Source: Escherichia phage vB_EcoM_Kelasse. From it: a stretch of 64,000 bases of DNA. Both the position numbers and the translations under genes were made by a program. Below, in pieces: positions 2 through 56,040 of this stretch. Each line of letters begins with the position of its first letter. The stretch's first letter is position 1. Where the stretch lies: sequence record MW749001.1. One strand, 5' to 3'. The notes under the pieces are model-generated. The model ran no database searches. It was not told where the DNA came from and was given only the letters and a program-made list of their open reading frames with translations.

Positions 2-271
2 TTATTTAAAACGAATAGTTGAATCCTTAAAGAACAGCCCAGAACATACTGTTCCTTCTACTTTCTGCCCGGTAGGTCCAATAGCACGAAATCCAGTATG
101 TTGGAAATCATTTTCAGAGCAACCGAACCAGTTATATCCAGTGATTTCAATATTCGTAAAACCACTTGATGATAAAATTTTAGTTGCATTATCAGCATCA
201 GTACATCCTACTAAAGATACTGCTAATACTAATGCTGCGATAGAACGATTAATATATTTCATAATTTTCAC
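2..271 (-). CDS. putative lipoprotein (89 aa)
   Basis: N-terminal signal peptide with lipobox LVGC; complete ORF. Confidence 0.55.
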   Translation of the reverse strand: MKIMKYINRSIAALVLAVSLVGCTDADNATKILSSSGFTNIEITGYNWFGCSENDFQHTGFRAIGPTGQKVEGTVCSGLFFKDSTIRFK

Positions 272-645
272 TTAAATTTAATAGCTTGAAGAAGACTAAT
301 AATTCTCAAGCGACTTCTTTCATCTTTAACTGTAAAGGAAAGAGGGTCGCCAGATTTCATGGTAATAGTGCATTCAAAATCAAAATCTTCTGTGACTTCT
401 TCGAAGAAGTCAAATTCTTCAGCATAAATTAGAACATTACTCTGCATACTGTGAAGAATTTTTCCGTTATTTCCAGACGCTGTACTAATCATCGTAACAT
501 TATGACCTTTCATATCTTCAACGATAAATTCGCTTGTAGATATTACAGCATTAATAGAACCATTCCTATAAATAGCAGACATTAGATATTTCTTTTCTTC
601 GCCTTCGCGAATACGATATTTCTTACCGATTTTAAACATAATCAC
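268..645 (-). CDS. hypothetical protein (about 123 aa)
   Basis: ORF track; track start is GTG, likely true start is ATG near 639 preceded by GGGTG. Confidence 0.5.
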   Translation of the reverse strand: MIMFKIGKKYRIREGEEKKYLMSAIYRNGSINAVISTSEFIVEDMKGHNVTMISTASGNNGKILHSMQSNVLIYAEEFDFFEEVTEDFDFECTITMKSGDPLSFTVKDERSRLRIISLLQAIKFK

Positions 646-818
646 CCTTTAAGTAAATCGTAAAAACCACCATTCACATGCTTAGGAGCAGAAGGCCGAC
701 GAGTAGACAAACGATGACATTTAGGGCAAACATCATTTTCTCGTTCAGAAATCTTTTTAATTTTTTCATATTCATGCCCGCAATCTTTAGATTGGCATTT
801 ATAATCATACATCGGCAT
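642..818 (-). CDS. small zinc-ribbon protein, FmdB-like (58 aa)
   Basis: Hand-translated, below ORF-track cutoff: MPMYDYKCQSKDCGHEYEKI...CPKCH; AAGGA Shine-Dalgarno 7 nt upstream; stop overlaps next start. Confidence 0.55.
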   Translation of the reverse strand: MPMYDYKCQSKDCGHEYEKIKKISERENDVCPKCHRLSTRRPSAPKHVNGGFYDLLKG

Positions 819-8737: not shown

Positions 8738-9208
8738 CTAGCGATAAAAACCAAATTTACGATTAGTTTCAATGATCTTTCTTTCTTCTTCGGACATTCT
8801 CCATCGTAGTCCAACATCAAAATGAGCCCAGACCATCTTAACAAATGCATTTATATCTTTAATATCTTCAATAATGAATGTTTTACTTTTAGAAGGTTGA
8901 CTCGCTAATTTAACTTTATCGTCTTCAAACATGTCAAAAAGACCATATTCATGAGCTCTTTTATAGCCTTTAATAGTTAAAGCTTCAGAAGAAGAAAATG
9001 GTGAATCTGTATTCTGCAAAATATCTTCAGTATGCTTTATAATTAGAATAACATTTTCTGGATATTTTCTTTCTTTTATATCTTTAATTAAAATATCCGG
9101 ATTTTCTGCTAAAGGAATAATTAACGAGCATTTTTTATCAAGTGTATTTACTGATTTACCTTCTTTAGACATAAATTCTATTGAATATAATTTTGCTACT
9201 TCAATCAT
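8738..9208 (-). CDS. hypothetical protein (156 aa)
   Basis: ORF track. Confidence 0.5.
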
Positions 9209-9365
9209 GTGATTTCCTTTTGCCTACTAATGGACCGTCAGGAATTTTGTTTTCCTGAATGTATTTCTCATTTTCTTCCATCATTTTACTACCGATTTTA
9301 AGAAGCAAATCCATTGCTTCATTTGCTTTTGCTTTGGCCTCTTCTAACGTCATATCTTTGCTCAT
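9201..9365 (-). CDS. small hypothetical protein (54 aa)
   Basis: Hand-translated [21 protein letters not shown]...; ATG overlaps upstream stop (ATGA). Confidence 0.45.
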
Positions 9366-10955: not shown

Positions 10956-11129
10956 TCAGTCTTCAATGAAAACTTGTGCTAGGAATTCGTGTTCATCATG
11001 AATTTGTTTATATAAAGCCATTACAGCATTTATATTAGAGCTATCTACTTTAAGCTGATAAGCATACCACTCGTGTAAATTAATTAAAGCTTTTTGTCGT
11101 CTAATAAATTCTTCTTTGGATATTTTCAT
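10956..11129 (-). CDS. small hypothetical protein (57 aa)
   Basis: Hand-translated MKISKEEFIRRQKALINLHEWYAYQ...; ATGA overlap with upstream ORF; occupies T4 segF position. Confidence 0.45.
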   Translation of the reverse strand: MKISKEEFIRRQKALINLHEWYAYQLKVDSSNINAVMALYKQIHDEHEFLAQVFIED

Positions 11130-13144: not shown

Positions 13145-13309
13145 TTACTCTTCTTTTTCTTTAGATTCCTCTTTTTTCTTTTTAGGAATCTGTTCAGGGC
13201 CTTTATTTACTACAGCGCCTGACGTTGTTCCAGTAGAGATATTTTCAGGATTACCACCTGAATCTCCAGCGACCATATCTTCTTTGATAAATTCTTTATA
13301 TGTTTTCAT
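13145..13309 (-). CDS. small protein with capsid-targeting-like N-terminus (54 aa, 61.1 position)
   Basis: Hand-translated MKTYKEFIKEDMVAGDSGG...; GAGG Shine-Dalgarno; Lys/Glu-rich tail. Confidence 0.5.
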   Translation of the reverse strand: MKTYKEFIKEDMVAGDSGGNPENISTGTTSGAVVNKGPEQIPKKKKEESKEKEE

Positions 13310-17820: not shown

Positions 17821-18669
17821 TTAATCAACTGCTATTGGATGAATAGCATTAAACTTATGAAATGCTTCTGATTTTTCTTTACGCGAAACACACATGCGAA
17901 GAACCTTTAATGGCTCGTCTTCTTCACCCAACGATTTTCGTTTTTCAATATTCGATGTTTTCCAACGAGCTTGCTCTGGAAACTCTCTATTGATTTGCTC
18001 AAGCGCTCTATTATGTTTAGAATTACTGCGAATTGAACTACACCCGCCAGGAGCTTGTGCTTTTCCAGATACAACCAGATATTTGAACAGGGCTAAATGC
18101 GGATAACCTTGATTAATTAAATTGAGAAATGCATACATATCTTCGCATAAATCAATTTTTCCATACCCAATTTGTTCTGTCGTAAGTTTTCCGAGGTCAT
18201 ACCATGTATTCGTGAATCCATATGAATTTTCACGATAATTACCCCAAGATGAAGTAATTTTAAAAATAGGTAGACGAGCATGGCCATGATAATACCCGCA
18301 ATCCATGGCATCCTCAACATATTGAATCAATTCATAGAACTGTTCACGAGTCAATTGATTGACTTTATCTACGCAACGACGATCATCTCTTTTTCGCATT
18401 GAACTCATACGAATAGTAGTATCATCGTCAATCATCCAGATTCGTTGACCTGCATACATATCGGTAATTGCTTTACGAGTACCGGCAATTCCGTTTACAT
18501 CATCAGGAATAGTTATAATTTTAGCTCTAGACCCATAAGCGTCATGATAAGCTTTTTCTTCATGTTCACGCACTACAATATGGGGTTCATAATCAGTCGG
18601 AAACATATCAAGGGCAGAAACTGCCCCGACACGCTGATAACTTGGAATTACGAATTGAATCATTTCCAC
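17821..18669 (-). CDS. DxD glycosyltransferase (GT-A like), probable beta-alpha-glucosyltransferase
   Basis: 282 aa; WMIDDD motif; sits at T4 segA/beta-gt position but is not T4 beta-gt. Confidence 0.55.
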   Translation of the reverse strand: MEMIQFVIPSYQRVGAVSALDMFPTDYEPHIVVREHEEKAYHDAYGSRAKIITIPDDVNGIAGTRKAITDMYAGQRIWMIDDDTTIRMSSMRKRDDRRCVDKVNQLTREQFYELIQYVEDAMDCGYYHGHARLPIFKITSSWGNYRENSYGFTNTWYDLGKLTTEQIGYGKIDLCEDMYAFLNLINQGYPHLALFKYLVVSGKAQAPGGCSSIRSNSKHNRALEQINREFPEQARWKTSNIEKRKSLGEEDEPLKVLRMCVSRKEKSEAFHKFNAIHPIAVD

Positions 18670-19407: not shown

Positions 19408-19557
19408 TCAATTGATACATTCATATTTAACTTGTAACAGTAATAAACCCCAACCTAAAATAATAGTCGGAATCATAAGAGGAACCGTTACACTATAGTA
19501 TATACTTATTATAATCATCAAGATTAAAAGCAACACTTCTATAATTTTGCTTTTCAT
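19408..19557 (-). CDS. small hydrophobic peptide (49 aa)
   Basis: Hand-translated MKSKIIEVLLLILMIIISIYYSV...; ATGA overlap with imm stop. Confidence 0.4.
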   Translation of the reverse strand: MKSKIIEVLLLILMIIISIYYSVTVPLMIPTIILGWGLLLLQVKYECIN

Positions 19558-19805
19558 TCCTTCTCTCTGATGATAATTACTTGATTTGGCTGTGCAGACT
19601 TTTTAGTTTCACCCGCAATTGACCAAATAAATGTAATAAACCAACCAATAATTGACCAGTTAAACAGCAAAGACGTGAAAAAGATTCCTACTGTCGATTT
19701 TGACCCACGCATCAAGGCGATAAACCATGGAAGCATGTATATAATAATAGCCAACACACCTGAAACTAAAACCATAAAAATTGAACCTGCTACTAAAGTT
19801 TCCAT
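19554..19805 (-). CDS. imm: immunity (superinfection exclusion) membrane protein Imm
   Basis: 83 aa; two transmembrane segments; size and position as T4 imm. Confidence 0.75.
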   Translation of the reverse strand: METLVAGSIFMVLVSGVLAIIIYMLPWFIALMRGSKSTVGIFFTSLLFNWSIIGWFITFIWSIAGETKKSAQPNQVIIIREKE

Positions 19806-28856: not shown

Positions 28857-29872
28857 TGTGTTGCCTCTACATATAACTGATTTGCATATTGAATAAGTGC
28901 TTCACGATCAGAATCAGTGATGTCTGGAATTGCATTAATGTATTCTTCCATCAACGTCTGAAGAGATTGAACTTCAACTTCTTCACTGTCATCTGACTCG
29001 ACAGAGTTATCAATCTTTGACACAACTCGTAATGAATGCACAACTTTTTCTAGTTCAGATTCGAACTTCGTCAGATTTTTGTCTACTTCAGTTACTATAA
29101 CACGTACTGATAGATTTGTAAAATCTTTATAGTCAATTTTTCCTTTAAATGGATAATGAATTCTACGGTGCCAGGTAGTATTGTTTGGAATAAATTCCAT
29201 TCGTTCTGTTTCTGTATCAAACATCCAGAACCCACGAGGGTCATTCTCGTCACCTGCAGTTAGTGTCCATGGTGTCCCAATATATCTGACGTTAGCAGCC
29301 TCAGAGATAGTATGGAAGTGACCAGACCACACCTCTTTATAAGTCTTAAGGAAATCAGGTTCAAGACCGTGAGATTTCATTCCTTTATAAAAATAAAATC
29401 CATTCAGCTCCCAGTGACCAACACAAAAAGAAGCAGATGAAGTTTTGATGTGTTCAAGAATTTCACCAGTATTTTCTTCGCACATCCAAGGAATTAAATC
29501 AATCAAACACCCGTCAAAATCTACTGTAGTAGGCTTATCATATACTTTAACATTAGGATATTTAGCCAAAAGCTCAGTAGAGGCATTTGGATGCATTACA
29601 TTTTTGTAGTGGAGATCGTGATTTCCTACAATAGTATGTAATGTGATTCCAGCGTCATCAAGCATTTGAACTATTTCGCGAGCGAACTCCATAGTTTTAT
29701 GCGTGATTGCTTTTCGCACATCAAAAATATCGCCGTATTGAATCCATGTAGTAATTCCATTTTTCTTAGAATATTCTATTGCTTGTTTAATTCCATCAAT
29801 TTGAATACCGCGAATCCACTCATCATCAGCTTTAACGCCTAAATGCCAATCACCTAAATTTAAAATTTTCAT
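28853..29872 (-). CDS. 47: recombination nuclease subunit gp47 (Mre11/SbcD-like)
   Basis: 339 aa; calcineurin-like phosphoesterase motifs GDWH, GNHD. Confidence 0.9.
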   Translation of the reverse strand: MKILNLGDWHLGVKADDEWIRGIQIDGIKQAIEYSKKNGITTWIQYGDIFDVRKAITHKTMEFAREIVQMLDDAGITLHTIVGNHDLHYKNVMHPNASTELLAKYPNVKVYDKPTTVDFDGCLIDLIPWMCEENTGEILEHIKTSSASFCVGHWELNGFYFYKGMKSHGLEPDFLKTYKEVWSGHFHTISEAANVRYIGTPWTLTAGDENDPRGFWMFDTETERMEFIPNNTTWHRRIHYPFKGKIDYKDFTNLSVRVIVTEVDKNLTKFESELEKVVHSLRVVSKIDNSVESDDSEEVEVQSLQTLMEEYINAIPDITDSDREALIQYANQLYVEATQ

Positions 29873-30009
29873 ATATCAAGAACCGTCATTGAAATGCAAA
29901 ATAAAATTATTGAAATAAATCCATCTGGAGTGCTAAAGAACCCAATCCAACATGCTCTAGTGAATAGATAAAATGCAAGAAAAAGTATCACATATCCAAG
30001 AAATATCAT
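29869..30009 (-). CDS. small hydrophobic peptide (46 aa)
   Basis: Hand-translated MIFLGYVILFLAFYLF...; stop overlaps gp47 ATG. Confidence 0.4.
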   Translation of the reverse strand: MIFLGYVILFLAFYLFTRACWIGFFSTPDGFISIILFCISMTVLDI

Positions 30010-31251: not shown

Positions 31252-31494
31252 TTAATATCCTCTTTGTTTTGGTTTATTTTACCAAAAATTTATAAAGCAA
31301 TATAGGAGCCGAAGCTCCTATCCACATAATACGCCATACAGAGGCTCATTAGAACTTTTAAATTTTATGCGCTTATATGTTATAGTTCCTTCTGCTTTAG
31401 CTTTATCATGAGACTCTTTAAAGCGTCTCATCATTTCCTCTTTAGAGGAACGAATTTTATTATAATCTATTTCAGAAGTCTGGGTGTTCATCTT

Positions 31495-33887: not shown

Positions 33888-34103
33888 TTAAATTTCCCAA
33901 TTACCATTTTCATCAATGAATTTAATCCAGTCATTTACTGACCACTTAGTTGTATCGCCTTTTGGAGTAACATTTAAAGTGTATAACCCCTGCTTAAAAA
34001 GCATTCGTTTGATATTCATATTTTCCTCAGCTGTAACGATAACACTCGTTTGATTTACGTTTAGCAACTCGTTGAGAAGTATTATAATCAAAATCATCGT
34101 CAA
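33888..34103 (-). CDS. hypothetical protein (71 aa)
   Basis: ORF track; overlaps next ORF by about 77 nt. Confidence 0.4.
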   Translation of the reverse strand: MTMILIIILLNELLNVNQTSVIVTAEENMNIKRMLFKQGLYTLNVTPKGDTTKWSVNDWIKFIDENGNWEI

Positions 34104-38389: not shown

Positions 38390-38893
38390 TCAAGTATTGT
38401 AAAACATTTGATTCAATCGCTTATATTGCCGAATCTTTTGGTCAGAAAAAGAAATTTGGGTTTCAAGCCATTCAATATATTCTGCCGCAGCTTGCATCAA
38501 ATTTCCTTCATAGCCATCGTTATTTTCTTGTGCAGCTAATTTAGCTAATGCGTATGAAATACGTTCACCTTGAAAATCGGCTTTAGGCTTCTGAACAACT
38601 TGATTAGTTCTATCTACAACTTCTTCAATTTCGCCATTTTCTACTGATTCAGTATTCCACAAGCACCAATACGTAATTGGCTTATCGTAGATGTTAATAA
38701 TCTTTCCATCAGAAAGTTCAATTTCAATAATTCCAGTATCAGGCTCTATATCATCTTCACATTCTTTTGCAAGTTCACGAACTTTAAAGACAGTACCTGC
38801 ACTAAGTTCCGGCCAGTAATTACACAGCCCTGTATCAGCACGATTAATTCTAAACCACTTATCTACTGTAATCATGTCCCATCTCCATATCAA
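38390..38893 (-). CDS. pin: Pin-position protein (inhibitor of host Lon protease)
   Basis: 167 aa; position downstream of 49; called by position and size only. Confidence 0.5.
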   Translation of the reverse strand: MIWRWDMITVDKWFRINRADTGLCNYWPELSAGTVFKVRELAKECEDDIEPDTGIIEIELSDGKIINIYDKPITYWCLWNTESVENGEIEEVVDRTNQVVQKPKADFQGERISYALAKLAAQENNDGYEGNLMQAAAEYIEWLETQISFSDQKIRQYKRLNQMFYNT

Positions 38894-38998
38894 TTAAGTC
38901 ATTTATCGTTGGTTCATTATATACTGTTTCTTCATCAGTGTAAACCGGTTCTTCCGGCTCTGGCTCTACAGTTTCCCATCTAGCCGCCCACCAAGGTT

Positions 38999-39319
38999 TT
39001 ATAGCGTAATCCATTCTCGTACTGTCTGAGTTACTACACGTTCATGGGGCTCGACTAGTTCAACAGTCGGAACTGCATAATACCAGTCAGAATGATAAGA
39101 ACCTGACCGAGATTCATTTACAGCCACATGTACATTATGTTTTGGACTAAAGTAAACACACTGACGATATTGACATTTACCATCTTGCACCCAGTCTTCT
39201 ATTTCGACAGGTTTAAGATAATCGGAAAAATCGAAATCATAGTTTTCCGAAAATGCATCATGGTCTTCAATGATTTCGCTCAGAACTGCATCAACATCTA
39301 ATTTATTTTCAATAGTCAT
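38999..39319 (-). CDS. hypothetical protein (106 aa)
   Basis: ORF track. Confidence 0.5.
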   Translation of the reverse strand: MTIENKLDVDAVLSEIIEDHDAFSENYDFDFSDYLKPVEIEDWVQDGKCQYRQCVYFSPKHNVHVAVNESRSGSYHSDWYYAVPTVELVEPHERVVTQTVREWITL

Positions 39320-39329
39320 TTTTCACCAA

Positions 39330-39500
39330 TTAATTTCGCAATTTATTAAGTTCTTCATCATCAATCCAGGATTCTAGTCCTGATGGCAGGTCACATTCAA
39401 TTTCCCAAAGAAGTTCTTCAATTTTCTGAAGACGATCTAGTTCTTCGGCTGGAATAGTAACCATTGACGGAGCTCGTGATACATTAATATCGTAAATCAT
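39330..39500 (-). CDS. small acidic hypothetical protein (56 aa)
   Basis: Hand-translated MIYDINVSRAPSMVTIPAEELDRLQK... Confidence 0.45.
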   Translation of the reverse strand: MIYDINVSRAPSMVTIPAEELDRLQKIEELLWEIECDLPSGLESWIDDEELNKLRN

Positions 39501-49934: not shown

Positions 49935-50109
49935 TTAAAGTTTCAATATAAGAATCAAGATTTACTTTAGCTTCTTCCATAAGAGTTTTGTATTTAATCT
50001 TGTTAGCATGTCCGGAGAAAGCTGATTCATCAATAATTGTTGATGTATGAACAGCTTTACTATACGTCTCAATTAATTCTCTTAATTTAAAAGCCTGCTC
50101 ACTTGTCAT
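49924..50109 (-). CDS. hypothetical protein (61 aa)
   Basis: ORF track. Confidence 0.45.
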   Translation of the reverse strand: MTSEQAFKLRELIETYSKAVHTSTIIDESAFSGHANKIKYKTLMEEAKVNLDSYIETLIGK

Positions 50110-50213
50110 TACATACTCCTCTGAATCATATCAATAATGTTGTTTACCAAATTATAAGTAAACATTGGGTAATTATATTGAATCATCACATACACAACAA
50201 ACAAAACTTTCAT
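50109..50213 (-). CDS. small hydrophobic peptide (34 aa)
   Basis: Hand-translated MKVLFVVYVMIQYNYPMF...; strong AAGGAG Shine-Dalgarno 7 nt upstream. Confidence 0.4.
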   Translation of the reverse strand: MKVLFVVYVMIQYNYPMFTYNLVNNIIDMIQRSM

Positions 50214-50273: not shown

Positions 50274-50447
50274 TTAAATGACGTTTTCAATAAAATTCTG
50301 AAGCTTTGTGTGAGCATCAACCATGATTTTCATTTCTTCTTTTGCGAAAGCTGTACCTCTTTCCCGAGCAGAATACTCATAGTCAGAAACTGCATTAGCA
50401 TATTCTTCAATTAGCTTCATTAAAAACATCTGCTTTTCAGTTTTCAT
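50274..50447 (-). CDS. small hypothetical protein (57 aa)
   Basis: Hand-translated MKTEKQMFLMKLIEEYANAVSDYEY... Confidence 0.4.
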   Translation of the reverse strand: MKTEKQMFLMKLIEEYANAVSDYEYSARERGTAFAKEEMKIMVDAHTKLQNFIENVI

Positions 50448-52655: not shown

Positions 52656-52841
52656 TTAAAGCGTATTCACATAAGCTATTAATTCATTTTCTTTCTTATC
52701 AAACCGATCAGCAAATTCTTCCTGCTGTTCAGGAGATAGCGGGCCGTATTCATCATAAAAGGTGTTTGCTTCTGTATGCTCATCTAGAAGTTCATGGATA
52801 AGCTCAAACAATTTATCTTTTTGTTCTTTGCTTAGGCTCAC
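52656..52841 (-). CDS. hypothetical acidic protein (61 aa, GTG start)
   Basis: ORF track. Confidence 0.45.
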   Translation of the reverse strand: MSLSKEQKDKLFELIHELLDEHTEANTFYDEYGPLSPEQQEEFADRFDKKENELIAYVNTL

Positions 52842-53014
52842 AGTATGTCAATCCCCAAAAGTTTTAAAATGACTCGTTTCTGATTCATAACCGCTACGAT
52901 TGAATGACCGTTGGGGTCTTTTTGACCTGATCCAATTATAAATCCTTTTTGCGTAGAAAGTTTAATCAAAACATCAAGTTCACGTAATAATTGATATTTT
53001 AAATCATCATTCAT
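52838..53014 (-). CDS. small hypothetical protein (58 aa)
   Basis: Hand-translated MNDDLKYQLLRELDVLIKLSTQKGF...; ATGA/GTGA overlaps at both ends. Confidence 0.4.
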   Translation of the reverse strand: MNDDLKYQLLRELDVLIKLSTQKGFIIGSGQKDPNGHSIVAVMNQKRVILKLLGIDIL

Positions 53015-53238
53015 TTTGGTTTACCTTCTTTAACGAAATCAGGATAAGGATAAAATCCTGAATAAAATCCTTCACCTTTATGATTGATGCATCCTTTATT
53101 AGAACAATAGCACCAATAATCGAAATCACAAGCCATTTCATCGTTGCATAAAGCAAAAACAACCGGCCACTTACACTTTTCACAGTGGGCATTTTTAAGA
53201 ATACTAGTTTGGCTCATAACCATGTAACCTTTAAGCAA
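53011..53238 (-). CDS. cysteine-rich small protein (75 aa)
   Basis: Nine Cys including CEKC and CxC pairs; probable zinc binding. Confidence 0.5.
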   Translation of the reverse strand: MLKGYMVMSQTSILKNAHCEKCKWPVVFALCNDEMACDFDYWCYCSNKGCINHKGEGFYSGFYPYPDFVKEGKPK

Positions 53239-55602: not shown

Positions 55603-55862
55603 ATACTGGCTTCTTTGAGTTTCGTTTTAGCAATAGTTAACTGATCGAGGCTTTCAGCATAATTCTTCGCGAATTCACAGTCTTCACAATTATCTAGTGC
55701 TTCCCAGAATTCATCGTATAAAGCGTCAAAGATAAGTCCTAAACGAACTTCAGCGTCTTTAATAGCATTCACTTTACCTATTTTCTCTTCAGTATGTGGT
55801 TTATAACCCTTAATATCTTCAATCATATTTGACTTCCTCACCAGTACATAAATCATATTCAA
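55560..55862 (-). CDS. hypothetical protein (100 aa); candidate positional counterpart of T4 vs.4
   Basis: ORF track; position in the block after regB; no sequence confirmation. Confidence 0.4.
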
Positions 55863-56040
55863 CTAAACGAATAGGTTCATGAATGCCATATCCCTGAACA
55901 GAAATTTCTGTCGTAGGATAAATTCCACTAATATCACCCATGTTCCACGCTTCATTAAATTGCTGTTCGCCTGAATTACTAAACCATTTGGCGAAAGCAT
56001 TTAGCACATCTTTAGAACCTTCAATAATTATCTTTGCCAT
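55819..56040 (-). CDS. hypothetical protein (73 aa)
   Basis: ORF track. Confidence 0.5.
   Translation of the reverse strand: MAKIIIEGSKDVLNAFAKWFSNSGEQQFNEAWNMGDISGIYPTTEISVQGYGIHEPIRLVEYDLCTGEEVKYD

Follow-up and report, generated by a model that had tools for sequence, protein, structure and literature searches.

Small early genes of a T4-like phage, among them an ortholog of T4 gene 39.2 with a predicted FmdB-type zinc ribbon

Small genes of the early region

The stretch of DNA analysed here, 64,000 nucleotides of Escherichia phage vB_EcoM_Kelasse (MW749001.1) and hereafter called the window, is the early-gene region of a Tequatrovirus, i.e. a T4-like phage. Its first 6 kb and its segment at 38-54 kb share 97-98% DNA identity with RB27, RB3, AndreasVesalius and PhiZZ23, its genes, all on the minus strand, are arranged as in the early region of T4 from 39.1 up to the e/tRNA region, and its GC content is 34.5%. 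An earlier note on this DNA had proposed, without giving a strand, that gaps in a track of ORFs cut off at 60 aa contain real small genes at ten positions. Each of the ten coordinate pairs exactly delimits a minus-strand ORF that runs from an ATG through its stop codon. The lengths are 58, 54, 57, 54, 49, 46, 56, 34, 57 and 58 aa in order of position, and each ORF occupies a gap between larger genes where it abuts or overlaps a neighbour. Three further genes of less than 60 aa, a-gt.2, 49.1 and 55.4, were absent from the list in that note and are given here together with the ten:

642..818, minus strand: ortholog of T4 39.2 (NwgI), 58 aa, predicted FmdB-type zinc ribbon (PF09723, TIGR02605), synteny with goF, dN/dS 0.20
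9201..9365, minus strand: modA.4 ortholog, 54 aa, 98% identical to T4 modA.4, phrog_2681 (2e-37), dN/dS 0.11
10956..11129, minus strand: 57-aa ORF between soc and a 66-aa ORF by gene 56, phrog_9053 (4e-24)
13145..13309, minus strand: 61.1 ortholog, 54 aa, 96% identical to T4 61.1, phrog_1823 (7e-34), dN/dS 0.18
19408..19557, minus strand: 42.1 ortholog, 49-aa hydrophobic peptide, 94% identical to the T4 sequence, phrog_3610 (6e-26)
29869..30009, minus strand: 47.1 ortholog, 46-aa predicted membrane peptide, 100% identical to T4 47.1, phrog_6693 (1.5e-31), dN/dS 0.10
31318..31491, minus strand: a-gt.2 ortholog, 57 aa, phrog_2140 (1e-38)
33888..34019, minus strand: 55.4 ortholog, 43 aa, 100% identical to T4 55.4, inside a longer, mechanically called TTG-ORF
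38859..39014, minus strand: 49.1 ortholog, 51 aa, acidic, 100% identical to T4 49.1, phrog_2382
39330..39500, minus strand: 56-aa acidic protein (net charge -9), helical in its model, phrog_3402 (1.5e-40), annotated in PhiZZ23
50109..50213, minus strand: mobD.2 ortholog, 34 aa, 94% identical to T4 mobD.2, phrog_3515 (3e-22), TAATG overlap downstream
50274..50447, minus strand: mobD.2a ortholog, 57 aa, DUF7438 (PF24219, 59.8 bits; GA 25), 96% identical to T4T mobD.2a
52838..53014, minus strand: 58-aa ORF of the tk.1-tk.3 region, phrog_3452 (1.4e-27), dN/dS 0.30, annotated in PhiZZ23

In these 64 kb, the 60-aa cut-off thus conceals no fewer than 13 real genes. The novelty that the earlier note implied for the small ORFs fails, as all ten are already known, seven being named T4 genes and three being annotated in close relatives, and 39.2 has a published function. 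The reality of the genes, their family membership and their orthology are established by the present analysis. We propose, with a probability of about 0.87, that the listed ORFs are ordinary, already catalogued T4-like small early genes, and that 642-818 is the 39.2 ortholog, most likely acting on GroEL.

Frames, coupling and conservation

The small frames are closely fitted to their neighbours. A start and the upstream stop share an ATGA at 9365 (modA.4, with the stop of srh), 11129, 19557 (42.1, with the stop of imm) and 53014, and a stop overlaps the downstream start at 29869 (ATGA, with the start of gene 47), 50109 (TAATG, mobD.2) and 52838 (GTGA), so that the 52838-53014 frame overlaps a neighbour at both ends. 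The starts at 818, 13309 and 39500 lie 1-2 nt past an upstream stop, the start at 50447 overlaps mobD.3 by 11 nt, modA.4 overlaps the start of modA.3 by 8 nt, and 42.1 ends 7 nt ahead of gene 42. For 39.2 the start lies 2 nt past the stop of goF, and its own stop lies 2 nt ahead of the next ATG. A Shine-Dalgarno match of at least 4 nt to TAAGGAGGTGAT at positions -18 to -4 is present in seven of the ten ORFs, as against 14.7% of all coding-strand ATGs. Three of the ten products are hydrophobic, namely those of 19408-19557 (GRAVY 1.51), 29869-30009 (1.73) and, more weakly, 50109-50213 (0.60). The earlier note, which had spoken of Shine-Dalgarno sequences, ATGA-type coupling and several hydrophobic peptides, is borne out on these points, the ATGA arrangement being real at four starts and at the stop at 29869. 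The products of 42.1 and 47.1 are small predicted membrane peptides whose translation is coupled to that of imm and gene 47, respectively. Small early genes packed head-to-tail in this manner would be carried on polycistronic early transcripts, and their translation would draw either on their own Shine-Dalgarno sites or on coupling to the neighbouring gene.

Conservation was assessed in 117 loci fetched from IMG/VR, for which gp61, gp47, tk, goF and dda, as larger neighbours, and not the small ORFs themselves served as anchors. Intact frames were found, depending on the ORF, in from 8 of 10 to 31 of 31 matches, and down to about 40-50% amino-acid identity. Since only 7 loci came from the goF anchor and 11 from the dda anchor, the distant homologs of 39.2 come mainly from the 10-kb flanks of loci anchored on gp61. 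Gene 61.1 has a Gly/Ser-rich core (MVAGDxGGxxxNIxSGTTSGAVVNKGPE) and a Lys-rich tail (loci L005-L035). In 28 of the 31 loci anchored on gp61, with primase identities as low as about 50%, it immediately precedes the primase gene 61; two of the remaining loci have no upstream DNA, and one is very distant. A further match of 61.1, to phrog_2086 at positions 109-154 of 156, suggests that some phages carry it as part of a larger fusion protein. mobD.2 is intact in 17 loci, down to 48% identity. The homologs of 52838-53014 are likewise intact, at 57-58 aa and 38-98% identity, and no homolog of this ORF was found in T4. The gene call upstream of it is ambiguous: a 61-aa ATG ORF (53007-53192, minus strand) has no PHROG match, and another frame (53011-53238, minus strand) corresponds in position to a 70-aa gene of PhiZZ23, its stop forming the ATGA with the start at 53014. 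The 10956-11129 frame, for which no T4 homolog was found and which is annotated as a hypothetical protein in relatives, is intact in five near-identical loci at 96% identity and is the weakest conservation case of the ten.

Could some of the ten be chance open frames in intergenic spacers that are never translated? The expression data available for T4 bear on this question in two ways. A time-resolved omics study (PMC9697503, Table S2) records early-class transcripts for 39.2, modA.4, 61.1, 47.1, mobD.2 and mobD.2a and mass-spectrometric detection of the proteins ModA.4, 49.1, a-gt.2 and 55.4; the proteins of 39.2, 61.1, 47.1, mobD.2 and mobD.2a went undetected in it. The lack of peptides for these five orthologs would agree with chance frames, but it is also to be expected because the products are very small or membrane peptides, and it is not positive evidence. 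The Shine-Dalgarno matches at 10956-11129 and 39330-39500 are weak (3 nt), and the first of these ORFs was found in only five loci so similar, with 10 substitutions in total, that its conservation test is a weak one. Against chance stand several features of the set. In random sequence generated by a Markov-1 model and matched in size and composition, an ATG-ORF of equal or greater length arises on that strand with a probability of 0.0008-0.017 per site; nine of the ten reading frames are unbroken in homologs at 40-60% identity; dN/dS in pairwise comparison with the window copy lies at 0.08-0.30, values biased downwards because the homologs were found by protein similarity; all ten ORFs match PHROG families (E about 8e-12 to 1.5e-40); and the starts and stops are tightly coupled to those of the neighbours. 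We accordingly hold it to be very improbable that any of the ten is an untranslated spacer frame, and the rates point to small ORFs evolving under purifying selection. The claim of real small genes in the gaps of the ORF track is thereby sustained. For modA.4, 61.1, 47.1 and mobD.2/2a, a literature search for functional work brought up nothing relevant.

Functional readings of 39.2, 39330-39500 and 42.1

From its sequence the product of 642-818 is predicted to be an FmdB-type zinc ribbon, scoring 45.8 bits against PF09723 (Zn_ribbon_8; curated cut-off (GA) 34.4) and 45.0 bits against TIGR02605 (CxxC_CxxC_SSSS; cut-off 31.3). The MPxYxYxC...CPxC arrangement from which the earlier note had recognised this family is indeed present: the product reads MPMYDYKCQSKDC...CPKC, its N-terminus MPMYDYKC furnishing MPxYxYxC from residue 1, with a first knuckle of the form C-x4-C, not CxxC, and CPKC as the second. 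An exhaustive HMMER search of 1.84 billion representatives returned 148 clusters at E <= 1e-3. MPxYxYxC is kept in all T4-like homologs and in seven of the nine representatives retrieved from that search, several of which display the canonical FmdB layout MPxYxYxCxxCGxxFE...CPxC...AP...KGSGWY, and in nine divergent homologs, with identities as low as about 41%, none of the cysteines C8, C13, C31 and C34 is replaced. Across the T4-like homologs the four cysteines, MPxYxY, ISxRD and an AP motif are invariant and the spacing of the first knuckle varies between CxC, CxxC and Cx4C; a conserved SAPKHVNGGFYD tail follows the ribbon. Four short strands, which a ribbon would be expected to have, are present in an AlphaFold model; because the mean pLDDT of this model is 52 (from a shallow alignment of 5 sequences), the zinc-ribbon fold is assigned from the sequence profiles. 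A sequence search of the PDB gave only insignificant matches to L31 zinc ribbons (E 0.66).

The product has 81% identity to 39.2 of T4T and T4 'wild', which is likewise 58 aa long, and 96.6-98% identity to RB27-type copies, and in RB27, T4 and T4T alike 39.2 lies downstream of goF and upstream of 39.1 and gene 39. The earlier note had named frame disruption in close relatives, along with a lack of ribosome occupancy, as what would count against it; what is seen instead is that, among 879 phage records with relatives of 39.2, 851 align over at least 80% of the gene in one place. An alternative 44-aa frame lies inside 39.2 (674-808, minus strand), and the copies of Shigella phage vB_SsoM_113 and Salmonella phage Manna enter this frame after the second knuckle, ending in ...VCLLVGLLLLSM; these two single-member clusters are probably sequencing errors or rare frameshift alleles. 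The adjoining 123-aa ORF (268-639, minus strand) matches phrog_622, and weak matches to a goF-annotated PHROG (1.2e-7) suggest that its product may be a distant goF paralog.

According to accounts of the T4 work (PMC5153855 and PMC4396842, citing Ang & Georgopoulos 2012, PMID 22234860), Gp39.2 is a 58-aa peptide that moves GroEL to an open conformation in which the chaperonin can bind host and phage co-chaperonins, and T4 with 39.2 deleted is blocked on hosts that carry specific groEL mutations. In light of its orthology with T4 39.2, the window 39.2 most likely acts on the host GroEL chaperonin as well, the mechanism being inferred from this published T4 work. As far as those accounts describe it, 39.2 would shift GroEL towards an open state to which GroES or the phage co-chaperonin can bind, and GroEL so opened would aid chaperonin-dependent folding during infection. 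In the 2012 work of Ang and Georgopoulos, homologs from RB69, RB43 and RB49 are said to behave similarly. A different role is implied by the databases, in which NC_000866 and many relatives carry the name 'FmdB-like transcriptional regulator' and phrog_1076 is categorised under 'transcription regulation'. On that reading the 58-aa ribbon would bind DNA or RNA polymerase and control phage or host genes, and both its basic character (net charge +4) and its position among the early genes motB, srd and modA, which remodel host transcription, would suit such a regulator. The label, however, was taken from the family name and not from experiment, and we found no experimental basis for it; neither a helix-turn-helix nor another DNA-binding domain was found in 39.2 with the Pfam and NCBIfam profiles, and we know of no demonstration of a DNA-binding role for FmdB proteins. 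The sole experimental work on 39.2, as it is summarised in the accounts cited above, reports modulation of GroEL, so that the widely propagated regulator name is unsupported by it. We judge a role as transcriptional regulator to be very unlikely and favour action on GroEL.

An antagonism of host defences might similarly be read from the annotation of the 39330-39500 product, either as an antitoxin against a host toxin or as a DNA mimic of acidic character that, in the manner of T7 Gp5.9, inhibits RecBCD. The label 'antitoxin from a toxin-antitoxin system' is attached to phrog_3402 and to the copies of PhiZZ23, fPS-65 and UFV-AREG1; the charge of -9, the helical model (an AF2 prediction of two helices, pLDDT 74) and the placement in a variable accessory slot would be in keeping with this role, as would weak matches to PF25708 Gp5.9 (E 4.7e-4, 20.5 bits) and phrog_6234 (E 8.6e-4). 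Yet the PF25708 match stays below the Pfam cut-off (GA) of 24.5 bits and spans 19 residues only, an hhalign comparison of the family with T7 gp5.9 gives a probability of 0.7% over 15 columns, and Foldseek against the PDB returns nothing below E 5. We therefore rejected membership in the Gp5.9 family on the grounds of the hhalign result, the sub-threshold Pfam score and the missing Foldseek match. Both neighbouring genes lack a toxin family, matching instead phrog_2112 and phrog_2294 (49.2); no antitoxin family match was found for the ORF in Pfam or NCBIfam, and a literature search found no paper behind the label, so that the antitoxin of an adjacent pair was rejected too. The ORF has 26 close homolog clusters. 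An anti-defence role is possible but unsupported, and we think it improbable, preferring to class the ORF with the other small early genes.

A further functional link can be considered for 42.1. This gene directly follows imm, either overlapping it or within 9 nt, in all 22 loci that contain 42.1 (window 19408-19805; loci L005-L063), and does so even in T4-like lineages that have no adjacent gene 42; about 12 loci have imm but no 42.1. Its motif PxMIPTLIxGW...Q.KYxCxN is kept, with an intact frame, down to 43% identity. The constant adjacency suggests an imm-42.1 module. That 42.1 is a functional partner of the superinfection-immunity protein Imm, and not an incidental neighbour, is a tentative idea to which we give perhaps one chance in several; were it correct, T-even superinfection immunity would be a two-component membrane system.

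Reference records and comparison with known systems

The reference record of T4 itself differs from the window at several of these genes. NC_000866 gives 45 aa for 39.2 and 38 aa for mobD.2a, the remainder of each aligning in another frame, and these short versions result from indels: in the alignment, 39.2 of NC_000866 has a 1-nt insertion absent from T4T (HM137666) and T4 'wild', both of which give 58 aa, and its mobD.2a switches frame relative to the 57-aa copy annotated in T4T. The sites corresponding to the truncations are 642-818 and 50274-50447 in the window, 1666-1840 in locus L002 and 17996-18165 in locus L003. Gene 42.1 is annotated in T4T and missing from NC_000866. We considered whether the disrupted T4 frames of 39.2 and mobD.2a speak against these genes and rejected this, because resequenced T4T (for 39.2 also T4 'wild') has them at full length. 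Pipelines that copy the T4 RefSeq inherit a truncated 39.2, a truncated mobD.2a and a missing 42.1. In view of genes already catalogued and a published function of 39.2, the present results carry little weight as discovery and have their practical value in annotation.

Other differences from T4 were noted in passing. In the vs.5 region the window has a 73-aa ORF (55819-56040, minus strand), to which the 58-aa vs.5 of the T4 RefSeq aligns in two frames; the T4 reference may be in error here too, or the alleles may truly differ. A 282-aa ORF (17821-18669, minus strand) lies between uvsX and gene 42, where T4 has segA and a 351-aa beta-glucosyltransferase; the DNA glucosylation gene of this phage may differ from that of T4. 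The window apparently lacks segF, a homing endonuclease gene, and the slot in which T4 carries segF is occupied by 10956-11129. Likewise, 39330-39500 occupies a variable accessory slot in which T4 has 49.3.

Compared with T4, the six other named genes among the ten, together with 49.1, 55.4 and a-gt.2, resemble the T4 small early ORFs in being 93.9-100% identical and in sharing both their neighbours and their overlaps. Unlike in NC_000866, 39.2 and mobD.2a of the window are full length, as in the resequenced T4T. The window also differs from T4, and agrees with RB27, in the extra 123-aa ORF at 268-639 that separates 39.2 from 39.1. The 39330-39500 product has in common with T7 Gp5.9 that it is small, acidic and, in its model, helical, and shares a VTIP-like N-terminal motif with it.

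The closest comparison is that of 39.2 with T4 gp39.2 (NwgI), with which it shares the length of 58 aa, the goF neighbour, the four cysteines and the C-terminal SAPKHVNGGFYDLLKG tail, whereas the two proteins differ at 11 of 58 positions, most of which lie between the knuckles or beyond the second one. With the FmdB family at large it has in common MPxYxYxC and two cysteine knuckles, and its AP...GGFY matches the AP...KGSGWY of the family. It departs from the family in having C-x4-C in place of CxxC as its first knuckle and in lacking the Ser/Gly-rich C-terminal tail; furthermore, 39.2 is encoded by a phage and associated with a chaperonin-related phenotype, whereas the role presumed for the family is a regulatory one.
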